Below are positions 1,561 to 45,824 of a DNA stretch of 64,000 nt, piece by piece. The stretch covers positions 2,144,001-2,208,000 of the forward strand of contig OY760142.1 in NCBI GenBank assembly GCA_963663225.1, in the 5' to 3' direction. Numbering within the stretch: the first letter of the stretch is position 1; each line of letters starts with the position of its first letter. A program made the translations under genes and the position numbers. The notes beneath the pieces are model-generated. The model worked only from the letters and a program-made list of their open reading frames with translations, did no database searches and had not been told where the DNA came from. This stretch comes from Nitrospirota bacterium (GTDB taxonomy: Bacteria > Nitrospirota > UBA9217).

Positions 1561-2313
1561 ATGAATATACCCCGGGAACAGTACCGTTATTTTCTCAAGG
1601 ACAGCGTCCGGCTTGCCATTGATTTCAGCCGGACCGACCAGAGCAGGGGAATACCGCCCCCTCCCGTGGAAAAACCGTTCGATCCGCGCGATAGCCGCAT
1701 ACATCTCACTCACCCGGGAGAGTGGAAAAAAATACGAGACGTCGGCCTTGTGTCTGCAATCAAAAACCGTAAAAGCCATCGGCAGTTCACTCTCGATCCT
1801 CTTTCTCTGGAAGAAGTGTCTTTTCTGCTCTGGGCGACGCAGGGTGTCCGGGAGAGAGCAGGCGTGTTTACGGCCTTCCGTACCGTGCCTTCGGCAGGCT
1901 GCCGCCATGCGCTCGAAACCTATCTGTGCGTGCAGAACGTGACGGGGCTGGAGACGGGAATCTATCGCTACCTTCCGCTGGAACATCAGCTTCTGACGGT
2001 GTCCTTGGACCAGGACCTGCCGATTAAAATAACAGCCGCCGCCCTGCACCAGCCCTTCGTCGGAAAAGCGGCGGTGACGTTTGTCTGGACGGCGGTGCCG
2101 TACCGCATGGAGTGGCGATATGACAATGCGGCCCATAAAGTCATCGCGCTGGATGCAGGCCACGTGTGCCAGAACCTTTATCTTTCGTGTGCGGCGATCA
2201 ACGCGGGGACCTGCGCGGTTGCGGCATACAATCAAGGGCTCATGGACGAACTGCTGGGTGTGGACGGGGAAGATGAATTCACGATTTACCTCGCGCCGGT
2301 GGGCAGGATTTGA
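1561..2313 (+). CDS. SagB/ThcOx-family nitroreductase-like dehydrogenase
   Basis: RKSHRQF, RTVPSAGCRHALE, DAGHVCQNLYL motifs; AGGAGG RBS. Confidence 0.88.
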   Translation: MNIPREQYRYFLKDSVRLAIDFSRTDQSRGIPPPPVEKPFDPRDSRIHLTHPGEWKKIRDVGLVSAIKNRKSHRQFTLDPLSLEEVSFLLWATQGVRERAGVFTAFRTVPSAGCRHALETYLCVQNVTGLETGIYRYLPLEHQLLTVSLDQDLPIKITAAALHQPFVGKAAVTFVWTAVPYRMEWRYDNAAHKVIALDAGHVCQNLYLSCAAINAGTCAVAAYNQGLMDELLGVDGEDEFTIYLAPVGRI

Positions 2314-44207: not shown

Positions 44208-44351
44208 AATTTTCGGAACGGCAGTTTTTAGAACCGGCAGCTGAAGTCGTTTATGCCGGGGAGTCCGTGCCTGTTCCGCGGGCTCTCCGGCATTTTAAAT
44301 TGTATTCGACATCCTCGACCCGGTACTCCCACAGTGTGTTTAATTCTTTTT

Positions 44352-45026
44352 TTATTCAAAACCGAACAATATACTCTGGAACAACCTTGTTCCTGCCTGT
44401 ATTTGTTCCCCGACCACATAATTCCCCGGAGTGCCGTGGTTTATTTCCCGGTGTTCTTTTGTGTGTTCTTCTGACCAGAAGAAGATTGTTCTTTTTCAGA
44501 ACGCCTTAATAATGTTCTTTTCCGGGAGCGTAAAGAGGTCCAGGTCAGGCGCATAGACCACGGGTTCGCACCCTTTTCCAGCGGCTGAATAATTAAGCTC
44601 ACTGTCTATCGTCAGTTCCATCGGCTTTTTGCAGTGTGCGCATTCAGTGTGGACCGTGACCGTAAGCTGTTCATTTCGTAATCGCCCTTGCACGAAGGGC
44701 GTGGCAAACGCATCCACTGCTCAGGCCGCGTATACCTGCTCGCCGGTGCTGAAGGTCAGATGATGGGGCGTTTTCTCTATTGTTACCGGATATGCCCATG
44801 TCACCGATCCTTCAGGATTTCTGAACAGGAACGTCATGCGCTTTTCCATGTCCTCAAGAAGGAATGCGACCCGGTCGCGGGGCATATTCAGCTTTTGCGC
44901 GATAACATCGGGCGGGAGAGGCTTTCCTGTACGGGGAAGTTCTCTGACTGTAAAATGATGCACTCGCCGGTGATCGGCGGTCATAAAACGCACCGCATTT
45001 TTAAACCTCCTGATCTTGTCTTCCAT
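44352..45026 (-). CDS. merB: MerB-like organometal lyase with two selenocysteines (U102 at 44721-44723, U177 at 44496-44498), 224 aa
   Basis: Read-through gives WAYPVT..HHL..VYAA-U-AVDA..ECAHCKKPMELTI..IIKAF-U-KRTIFFWSEEH..FGFE-TAA, matching MerB YAWCALD and SFCCHVHFFAS; SECIS-like hairpin after each UGA; AAGGAG RBS. Confidence 0.85.
44466..44483 (-). promoter_or_regulatory. SECIS-like hairpin for the second UGA of the MerB-like gene
   Basis: TTCTTCT-GGTC-AGAAGAA starting 12 nt after UGA. Confidence 0.7.
44683..44701 (-). promoter_or_regulatory. SECIS-like hairpin for the first UGA of the MerB-like gene
   Basis: CGCCCTT-CGTGC-AAGGGCG starting 19 nt after UGA. Confidence 0.7.
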
Positions 45027-45068
45027 GCAGTCTCCTTTCGTAACGCGAATAAGCTATGTATACTTTTA

Positions 45069-45605
45069 TCATATTTGCCGCTCCGTCCGCGATTGCTTTC
45101 TGATGAGGATGATTTCTGCTGCTGGAATACCGAGCGACTCAAGAAAGTCCTGATGGGCTTCCGGGGCGAGCCGTTCAAATTCCGTATGCCATTTGCTTCG
45201 TGCCGTTTCATCCAGTCCGGAGTTCTGCAGCAATTGTATCCAGCGTTTTTTGTCCATGAACCCCGCCCTGGCAATTGCGCGATTGTTCTTTAAAAGAGTG
45301 ACAATAAAATGCTGCTGATTGCGCAAAGCACGGATTTCGTTGTTTAAGTCTTCAAGCCGCTTTTTAAGGAGATAAACGACGCCTTTTCCGCCATTGGTTT
45401 TTATGACCCTGTCGATGTCTTTGAGCGGCAGTCCCGCCCTGCGGTACGTGCATATTTGTTCAAGACGGGCGCAGTCTTTTTCGGTGTAGGCCCGGTAATT
45501 CGAGCTGCTTCTTCCCGAGGGAGAGAACAGTCCGAGCGAATCATAGTAAAGCAGGGTGCTGCGGGAAAGGCCGAATTTTTTCGACAATTTGCCGATGGTA
45601 TACAT
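45069..45605 (-). CDS. MerR-family transcriptional regulator
   Basis: YTIGKLSKKFGLSRSTLLYYDSLGL..NYRAY HTH; coiled coil; C-terminal WH.EFE..APE.HQ.FL.SLG domain; AGGAGG RBS. Confidence 0.92.
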   Translation of the reverse strand: MYTIGKLSKKFGLSRSTLLYYDSLGLFSPSGRSSSNYRAYTEKDCARLEQICTYRRAGLPLKDIDRVIKTNGGKGVVYLLKKRLEDLNNEIRALRNQQHFIVTLLKNNRAIARAGFMDKKRWIQLLQNSGLDETARSKWHTEFERLAPEAHQDFLESLGIPAAEIILIRKQSRTERQI

Positions 45606-45629
45606 GATCACCTCCTGCATCAGCAGTGT

Positions 45630-45660
45630 AGCATAAACTATAAAGCAATAGACAGGTCAA
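45630..45660 (-). promoter_or_regulatory. MerR-type promoter with 19-bp spacer
   Basis: TTGACC-19 nt-TATGCT with CTAT..ATAG dyad in the spacer. Confidence 0.7.
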
Positions 45661-45824
45661 GGTGTTTTTTTAATTTCAGGTCTTTCCGGGTTAAACGGTA
45701 CGCAGGGGCGGGGAGATTGAGAAAAGCTGTTTTCTTGTTGCATCAGTAAATCAAGCCGAAATTCCGTTGTGCGATGTTTTAAGGTATAATCATAAACGGG
45801 AGTTTTATGAACAGGGATATCTTC

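Follow-up and report, generated by a model that had tools for sequence, protein, structure and literature searches.

The 64,000-nucleotide stretch of a Nitrospirota bacterium genome analyzed here (contig OY760142.1, positions 2,144,001 to 2,208,000; hereafter, the window) carries, on its reverse strand, a gene for a MerR-superfamily regulator followed by a gene for a MerB-like protein, in which two in-frame TGA codons are predicted to encode selenocysteine (Sec). The two genes very probably form an operon headed by a sharply conserved operator. We lean modestly toward the complete description, in which the locus is an autoregulated two-gene operon combining a MerR-type switch of the C-terminal-effector class with a MerB-fold, two-Sec protein that is likely a carbon–metal lyase and functions independently of MerA. 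Lyase activity specifically on an organomercurial is proposed more tentatively, as somewhat less than an even prospect.

Conserved operator of the regulator–MerB pair

As the preliminary description of this DNA had stated, the regulator gene lies 42 bp upstream of the MerB-like gene on the same strand and is preceded by TTGACC-N19-TATGCT; both features are read directly in the sequence (Table 1). The operators of 11 regulator-linked loci from two phyla were aligned, comprising six complete pairs and one decayed copy from the family of the window and four pairs from a second phylum. The alignment revealed a 31-bp element, CTTGACCTG[T/A]CTA-N3-CTT-N-A-N2-GT, whose listed positions are identical in all 11 loci. 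The invariant operator positions are CTTGACCTG.CTA...CTT.A..GT, and the DNA 5' of them shares nothing among these loci. The spacer is 19 nt long in 11/11 loci and its sequence is conserved. In the 3.26-Mb genome of the window, the operator matches only once, with strict and loose patterns alike. In every locus it heads the pair, nine times in the order merR–merB and twice in the order merB–merR. Since the operator precedes the MerB-like gene in the two reversed-order loci, it follows the operon rather than the regulator gene. Furthermore, a near-identical operator precedes two paralogous regulators with different cargo (47–49% identity; one of them encoded in a genome of the window's genus). 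MerR-family activators are established to act at a site within the 19-bp spacer that separates good -35 and -10 boxes. Sequence comparison likewise places a predicted binding site within a promoter of the 19–20-bp-spacer type, and the element at 45625–45661 is, on this comparison, the predicted cognate site of the regulator family.

The CTAT..ATAG dyad in the spacer, which had been put forward as a feature of the promoter, is present but carries less weight than was assigned to it. An inverted repeat of at least 4 bp occurs in 16% of random genomic 19-mers and in 4% of shuffles of this spacer, and TTGAC[CA]-N19-TAnnnT has 76 matches in the genome of the window. The CTAT/ATAG pairing is broken in 2/11 operators (L034 and L111), and a further five, in which the left arm reads CTAC, keep three of the four pairs. 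Given the 76 pattern matches and the 16% of chance dyads, the dyad and the box pattern alone are thin evidence; the promoter is judged real because it is conserved across loci, not because of the dyad.

Co-occurrence of the two genes across genomes

The distribution of the pair was surveyed in two samples of 401 genomes each, one from the phylum of the window and one from a second phylum, that of a Syntrophaceae record, which is rich in sulfate reducers. The two-TGA gene is present in 7/401 own-phylum genomes, all of one family. The regulator (at least 70% identity) occurs in six of these seven, always directly upstream on the same strand, and in no other own-phylum genome. The seventh carrier (L025; G011, about 1365–2052) holds a decayed unit, of which the operator and the first 53 regulator codons remain. 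With a change of frame, this remnant continues into a MerB-like gene from which about 39 N-terminal residues are missing, whereas both TGA codons and the hairpins that follow them are retained. In the second phylum, 26/401 genomes carry the two-TGA gene, and four of the 26 contain the regulator anywhere in the genome (49–53% identity over the whole length), adjacent in 4/4. Adjacency thus holds in 10/10 genomes with both complete genes (six own-phylum and four second-phylum) in the samples searched. The earlier expectation of a conserved pairing is therefore correct wherever both genes exist, whereas it does not extend to the 22/26 second-phylum carriers that lack the regulator. Autoregulation of a two-gene unit, also proposed at that stage, agrees with the operator standing before the first gene in 11/11 loci and heading a presumably co-transcribed unit that includes the regulator's own gene.

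Among the 22 second-phylum loci (of 26) that lack the regulator, a MarR-family gene lies directly upstream on the same strand in six (L101, L105, L106, L107, L108, and L112) and a gene for an S-adenosylmethionine (SAM) methyltransferase directly upstream in two (L112 and L115); the remaining loci have unrelated neighbors. A Pfam search of 95 open reading frames (ORFs) flanking the 26 loci returned no mer gene, and no transporter or metal-specific gene was found in the flanks examined. In a MerB tree, from which eight near-duplicate or partial rows were omitted, the family of the window forms a clade with support values of 98/96 and one second-phylum member nearby, while the reversed-order pair forms a separate clade (100/98). 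Genes linked to the regulator are thus found in two or more distinct clades with good support, and parsimony gives three changes. A single origin of the regulator linkage would nevertheless be compatible with the well-supported branches of this tree.

A MerR-superfamily regulator with a small putative sensor domain

The AlphaFold model of the regulator (predicted local distance difference test, pLDDT, 89.4) consists of a winged helix-turn-helix (HTH), a long coiled coil (residues 73–105), and a bundle of four helices (residues 108–177). The protein scores 57.4 bits against Pfam MerR_1 (PF13411), and its N-terminal winged HTH and coiled-coil dimerization helix match MtaN with a template modeling (TM) score of 0.87 on the target. 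By sequence, TipAL, BrlR, and SkgA are its closest relatives of solved structure. Foldseek matches of the model span the first 105–125 residues only, leaving the C-terminal domain with no match in the PDB. This helical domain of about 60 residues has no Pfam match at E values up to 0.1, and its best score in the ESM Atlas is 0.84, to unnamed hypothetical proteins of 49–90 residues, which is below a meaningful level. The protein contains no Pfam match to the TipAS antibiotic-recognition domain, and its Foldseek alignments end at about residue 125; accordingly, it does not belong to the TipAL type. We regard the C-terminal helical domain as an undescribed small sensor domain.

Within an alignment of 41 family members, W122, L126, G130, W139, H140, F143, E144, P148, H151, F154, and L158 are invariant. 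The two N-terminal cysteines that had been noted are exactly C45 and C52, but conservation holds for C52 alone, which is kept in at least 90% of the 41 sequences; C45 is not conserved, and no conserved Cys occurs past residue 52. The proposal that the regulator is not an Hg(II)-type MerR was upheld. Against TIGR02051, the family of Hg(II)-sensing MerR proteins, it reaches 37.1 bits versus a cut-off of 150.85. Its dimerization and C-terminal parts are free of Cys, so that the three metal-binding Cys of that family are missing.

More than 1,500 proteins in a large protein database match the regulator at an E value of 1e-3 or better. The 120 matches listed cover at least 92% of its length, and one of them comes, by its source name, from a gammaproteobacterium. 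Identity to the regulator reaches at least 63% in roughly 75 database proteins. A search of plasmids returned seven records at 39–40% identity, of which one was examined. A free-standing form of the sensor domain, 60–70 residues long, is the cargo upstream of the two paralogous regulators. These stand-alone proteins (L037:about 2100-2260 (-) and L038:about 2080-2250 (-)) lie behind the near-identical operator; a terminator-like hairpin comes after each of them, ahead of the paralogous regulator gene. The regulator thus defines an undescribed MerR subfamily, whose examined members combine a new small sensor domain with a predicted cognate DNA site.

A MerB-fold protein with two predicted selenocysteines

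When both TGA codons are read through, the second gene product matches Pfam MerB (PF03243) with 51.5 bits against a gathering threshold of 27, over residues 83–215, which cover both codons. Alignment of the family profile with solved MerB places residue 102 at Cys96, Asp105 at Asp99, residue 177 at Cys159, and Cys129 at Cys117, which points to a putative catalytic triad of Sec102, Asp105, and Sec177. With respect to the MerB signature Cys96/Asp99/Cys159/Cys117, the Asp and the Cys117 equivalent are present, and positions 96 and 159 are TGA/Sec. The AlphaFold model (pLDDT 91.1; predicted TM score 0.88) adopts the MerB fold: each of the first 11 Foldseek hits is a MerB or MerB2 protein, with E values down to 4e-13 and TM scores of 0.70–0.81 to crystal structures. 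Asp105 and all other residues that make up the MerB active site are the same in 34/34 aligned sequences.

The two TGA codons occupy the same positions in 33/33 full-length homologs (from 7 own-phylum and 26 second-phylum genomes), a count that leaves out a partial second copy with one TGA in one of those genomes. Each codon is followed by a hairpin resembling a bacterial selenocysteine insertion sequence (SECIS), beginning 19 and 12 nt past the respective TGA, with a G/U-containing loop and conserved in 10/10 loci. The core of hairpin 1, ACGCCCTTCGTGCAAGGGC, is identical in all 10 loci, down to 47% protein identity and with synonymous sites included. Hairpin 2 is likewise kept in 10/10 loci, and its loop-closing pair underwent a compensatory change from CUGGUCAG to CCGGUCGG in two of them (L024 and L034). 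The genome encodes Sec machinery in the form of selB, which scores 375.9 bits versus a cut-off of 242, and a tRNA-Sec with the anticodon TCA. Furthermore, Cys occupies both Sec sites in a sister clade at 22–30% identity, and the branch between this clade and the Sec clade has full support. Conserved in-frame TGA codons replaced by Cys in other homologs are the pattern of a selenoprotein.

The members of this Cys-Cys sister clade carry the motifs YALCATDALG and TFCPFMNFFCS and are also far from classical MerB. They occur in 9/401 own-phylum genomes and 44 metagenome loci (L026, L088–L091, and, from metagenomes, L041–L084). The metagenome scan returned only Cys-Cys loci (44, at 22–29% identity) because the back-translated search pattern encoded Cys, and it carries no information on the Sec clade. 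In eight of the 44, an unrelated generic MerR HTH lies 1.5–2 kb upstream. Most homologs of the two-Sec protein open with about 28 extra residues (M.GLWR.M...P..LW.K; e.g., L024:1402-1500 and L029:3929-4010). This segment is missing from the genus of the window, where stop codons lie 5' of the ATG at 45026.

The literature search found SaoL as the sole described MerB-like selenoprotein and no other organomercurial or alkylmercury lyase with selenocysteine. In the tables of selenoproteome reviews from 2022 and 2026, SaoL alone is entered as MerB-like. The enzyme family and its switch are variants of MerB and of MerR-type activation, and neither was found in print.

Mercury-related genes in the genome

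The genome encodes the mercury-methylation proteins HgcA (394 bits versus a cut-off of 275) and HgcB (117 versus 99), both above their NCBIfam cut-offs. The N-terminal extension of HgcA contains Cys-Cys pairs (SCCAAP and KTCCS), not the Cys-Sec motif reported for most HgcA proteins. The absence of merA, merT, and merP from the window, pointed out at the outset, was confirmed and extends to the whole 3.26-Mb genome, in which none of the three exceeds its curated cut-off. The best MerA candidate reaches 368 bits versus a cut-off of 454; it was rejected, as it fits the FAD-containing oxidoreductase subfamily NF004991 best (750 versus 620) and has no C-terminal Cys pair. Two further MerA-like matches are dihydrolipoyl dehydrogenases. 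MerC has no match in the genome, and MerP, MerT, and true MerR are all below their cut-offs.

About 77 kb away, outside the window, lies a MerT-like membrane ORF of 95 residues (L039:1468-1752 (+), corresponding to G000:C1 about 2266.33–2266.61 kb), which scores 22.5 bits against PF02411 versus a cut-off of 32.9. It has an in-frame TGA in F-C-U-Q (Cys-TGA), and the ORF just 5' of it (L039:989-1486) also contains in-frame TGA codons. According to the preprint of Haft and Gwadz, a CU motif is found in rare selenoproteins of the MerT family.

HgcA is present in 53/64 genomes of the family of the window and is thus nearly universal there, so that its association with the two-Sec gene is uninformative within this family. 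In the second-phylum sample, HgcA (presence threshold 1e-40; counted by eye from the table) was detected in 14/26 carriers versus 107/375 non-carriers, giving an odds ratio of 2.9 (Fisher p 0.013, uncorrected for relatedness). This enrichment among carriers serves as a lead only.

Comparison with known systems

MerB of plasmid R831b (PDB 3F0P and 3F2F) shares its fold and active-site positions with the protein described here. In contrast, both catalytic Cys are Sec in the latter, the identity is about 21%, and the NCBIfam scores are far below the cut-offs for true MerB. The genetic setting also differs, as there is no mer operon; the genome lacks MerA, MerT, MerP, and MerR above cut-offs; and the host is an anaerobe with hgcAB. 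SaoL of the SAO locus (NF040728) is similar in being a MerB homolog of anaerobes with Sec at the metal site and outside classical mercury resistance. As described in the 2022 preprint of Haft and Gwadz, SaoL carries a single Sec, as part of a Cys-Sec dipeptide, and belongs to a nine-gene transport locus. The present protein has two Sec, the motif A-F-U-K with no CU, and a score of 42.2 versus the SaoL cut-off of 140, which places it outside that family. The gene in the window is flanked only by its regulator, and those of its relatives by the regulator or by unrelated genes.

Streptomyces TipAL/TipAS and the Mta/BmrR/BrlR class are the nearest solved proteins to the regulator in both sequence and fold. 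They share its architecture, in which a C-terminal effector domain follows the HTH and the coiled coil, and its probably autoregulated promoter. Its C-terminal domain of about 60 residues is neither TipAS nor GyrI-like and contains no Cys. TipAS is the separately made ligand-binding half of TipA, and the co-regulated, free-standing sensor domain in the paralogous loci resembles it. In comparison with the classical MerR/mer operator-promoter of Tn21 and Tn501, the 19-bp spacer and the predicted regulator site within it are shared, whereas the three Hg-binding Cys are missing and the operator is largely asymmetric instead of a long perfect dyad. The statement that merR is usually divergent from the mer genes applies to Tn21/Tn501-type operons but not to Gram-positive mer operons, in which merR is the first co-transcribed gene.

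NmlR/AdhR with adhC provides another minimal operon of a MerR-family regulator and one detoxifying enzyme, although NmlR has no sensor domain, unlike the regulator here. In these proteins, activation depends on a single conserved Cys of the DNA-binding half, namely Cys52 of Bacillus subtilis AdhR and Cys54 of Haemophilus influenzae NmlR (PMC4776306). Ungapped offsets put Cys52 of the present regulator at chain residue 54 or 55, subject to the numbering of the crystallized constructs, and its correspondence to the NmlR sensor Cys is tentative. A comparison of a 68-residue regulator piece with PDB sequences for this alignment gave chance matches only.

Proposed mechanism and alternatives

In the favored mechanism, a dimeric MerR-superfamily activator would bind the conserved element within the 19-bp-spacer promoter. 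It would belong to the activators with a C-terminal effector domain (TipAL, Mta, and BrlR), rather than to the metal–thiolate class (CueR, ZntR, and MerR). A ligand in the helical C-terminal domain, possibly together with Cys52, would untwist the over-long spacer and realign the -35 and -10 boxes, allowing RNA polymerase to open the promoter. Transcription of the regulator gene and the downstream MerB-like gene would consequently rise. In the protein thus produced, Sec102 and Sec177 may bind the metal of an organometal cation, and Asp105 may protonate the carbon, whereupon the hydrocarbon would leave by protonolysis. The favored substrate would be methylmercury or another soft organometal cation. 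With no MerA available, the metal would stay on the two selenolates until cellular thiols or sulfide take it. We infer activation rather than repression, co-transcription of the two genes, and a transcription start near 45623; the ligand, the substrate, and the fate of the metal are presumed in the same way. The search of sequencing runs listed no RNA run containing the stretch. In three runs labeled RNA-Seq, which probably represent DNA, relatives appear as short contigs that cover parts of both genes, but no contig bridges the junction.

Several observations weigh against this interpretation. At the promoter, the -10 box is poor in GC-rich relatives (CAACCT and CAGCCT), and the conserved element is largely asymmetric, with a symmetric part of just 3–4 bp, which is unusual for the site of a MerR-type dimer. 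The start site and co-transcription are predicted from the sequence. The regulator is missing not only from the 22 second-phylum carriers mentioned above but also from the single Chloroflexi record (1/1). Since most carriers of the enzyme do without it, the switch is an add-on rather than part of the enzyme's core biology. The examined plasmid record, from Vibrio, encodes a 40%-identical regulator homolog after a DMT transporter gene, and the regulator family is therefore not tied to organometals. Together with the more than 1,500 database matches, this context indicates a broad subfamily with several cargos, the MerB-like gene being one. No feature of the sensor domain, which lacks Cys, points to its ligand. 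With regard to the enzyme, the NCBIfam cut-offs for true MerB (NF009710, NF033555) are missed by far, with scores of 51.9 versus 193 and 39.9 versus 200. Folded alone, the hairpins match their shuffles (z scores of -0.89 and -0.86, with 33 and 36 of 200 shuffles as stable), and Rfam returned no SECIS or other family at the gathering threshold or at E values up to 10. Finally, Hg on two selenolates should be released very slowly, and this chemical reasoning argues against a multi-turnover lyase.

The same unit could instead encode a protein that binds metal stoichiometrically, as an inducible trap or chaperone with two selenolates, the metal being Hg(II), methylmercury, or another soft species. 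In a methylator, it might hand this metal to HgcAB or take it away from there. Such a role would suit a protein whose metal ligands are both Sec, as Hg–Se bonds are extremely strong, in a genome that has HgcAB and no MerA to take the product. The enrichment of HgcA among second-phylum carriers points in this direction as well, subject to the uncorrected relatedness. A mere binder, however, would have no need for the proton donor Asp105 and the invariant active-site constellation, 12/26 carriers have no HgcA match, and the association in the window's own family says nothing; we consider a trap unlikely. We assign a similarly low probability to an inducible lyase for a non-mercury organometal or organometalloid, such as methylated tin, lead, or arsenic, or selenium or tellurium species, which a His/Glu/Trp-rich sensor would recognize. 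The sensor has no Cys, and its invariant His140, Glu144, and His151 are donors that suit harder cations better than Hg. Further MerB complexes have been solved, among them entries 5u79–5u7c, which we take to be organotin and organolead complexes. Haft and Gwadz argue in their preprint that Sec in MerB-like SaoL may shift its substrate range. The SAM-methyltransferase genes directly upstream in 2/26 loci would also fit this alternative, but positive evidence for any such metal is lacking, and the flanks of the 26 loci contain no metal-specific or transporter gene.

Two further alternatives concern the reading of the locus itself. The regulator might control itself alone, or the genes might be transcribed separately, so that their adjacency has no regulatory meaning. 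L113, with about 250 bp and a strong hairpin between the genes, and the terminator-like hairpin between cargo ORF and regulator in the paralogous loci are compatible with separate transcripts. This alternative is nevertheless very improbable: in the merB–merR loci (L111 and L113) the operator lies before merB and not before the regulator gene, adjacency holds in 10/10 genomes, and the 42-bp gap in the window has no predicted promoter or terminator. The TGA codons might also be genuine stops in a split or decayed MerB gene, as gene callers end the ORF at residue 101 and Rfam offers no SECIS match. We consider this almost certainly wrong, because the same two TGA codons recur in all 33 full-length homologs and in three phyla, protein conservation continues past both, the Pfam match spans them, and the conserved hairpins, with one compensatory change, accompany a genome-encoded Sec machinery.

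A broader scenario, which is speculative and which we rate as improbable in its full form, is that the unit serves mercury-methylating anaerobes as a dedicated module for sensing and cleaving methylmercury, whether self-made or ambient, or a related organometal. Cleavage would take place on a diselenolate, Hg would be held without MerA, and sensing would rely on a non-thiolate domain, possibly with Cys52.

Implications for MerB gene surveys

The MerB signature in the survey by Christakis et al. (2021; PMC8261052) requires Cys96, Asp99, Cys159, and Cys117, and the part of that survey dealing with MerB-only genomes reports none with hgcAB. The MerB-fold protein described here fails such a Cys-signature filter, yet its genome has hgcAB and no merA. 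Since both positions are Sec, surveys that demand Cys at 96 and 159 miss this enzyme, which is also encoded by the 26 sampled genomes of the second, sulfate-reducer-rich phylum. If the broader scenario above holds, the operon would provide a genetic basis for the long-sought demethylation independent of the mer operon in anoxic sediments. The regulator and its sharply conserved operator offer a practical handle on the inducer, and hence on the purpose of the enzyme, ahead of selenoprotein biochemistry.

Layout of the locus and neighboring genes

The coordinates of the features are summarized in Table 1. The placement of AGGAGG supports 45605 as the start of the regulator gene, rather than the listed ATG at 45620. 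A simple scan detected no promoter-like or terminator-like site in the gap between the two genes. The GC-rich palindrome downstream of the MerB-like gene is likely the end of both convergent transcripts; on the reverse strand it is not followed by a T-run, and its role for the operon is therefore only presumed.

Table 1. Features of the regulator–MerB locus (window coordinates) and the hgc genes of the same genome
Feature	Position	Strand	Basis
Promoter/operator: C-TTGACC (-35), 19-nt spacer, TATGCT (-10), then ACACT	45625..45661	-	sequence and comparison
-35 box, TTGACC	45660-45655	-	read in sequence
19-nt spacer, TGTCTATTGCTTTATAGTT	between -35 and -10	-	read in sequence
-10 box, TATGCT	45635-45630	-	read in sequence
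Ribosome-binding site of the regulator gene, AGGAGG	45611..45616	-	sequence; kept in orthologous loci
MerR-superfamily regulator ORF, 178 residues, ATG at 45605	45069..45605	-	read in sequence
Intergenic gap, 42 bp, with GGAG at 45035-45032	45027..45068	-	sequence and simple scan
MerB-like gene, 224 residues, ATG at 45026, ends with TAA at 44352, two TGA read through	44352..45026	-	
First in-frame TGA, predicted Sec102, MerB Cys96 position	44721..44723	-	
Second in-frame TGA, predicted Sec177, MerB Cys159 position	44496..44498	-	
SECIS-like hairpin 1, 7-bp stem CGCCCUU/AAGGGCG, loop CGUGC, starts 19 nt past TGA	44683..44701	-	fold
SECIS-like hairpin 2, 7-bp stem UUCUUCU/AGAAGAA, loop GGUC, starts 12 nt past TGA	44466..44483	-	fold
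GC-rich 17-bp palindrome between convergent genes	44253..44293	.	terminator score on + strand
hgcA and hgcB (outside the window)	L020:940-2166 and L020:641-955, i.e., G000:C1 about 975.0-976.5 kb	- (both)	

The neighboring genes in the window are unrelated to the pair. A metallophosphoesterase-like secreted gene converges on it, and a DUF1499 gene is divergent from it, with glycosyltransferase and OsmC genes beyond. In the sequencing run that contains the whole stretch, several other contigs match only positions 44652–44748, which include the first TGA and its hairpin, at up to six times the depth of the contig that contains the whole stretch. Other members of the community probably carry homologs of the MerB-like gene.

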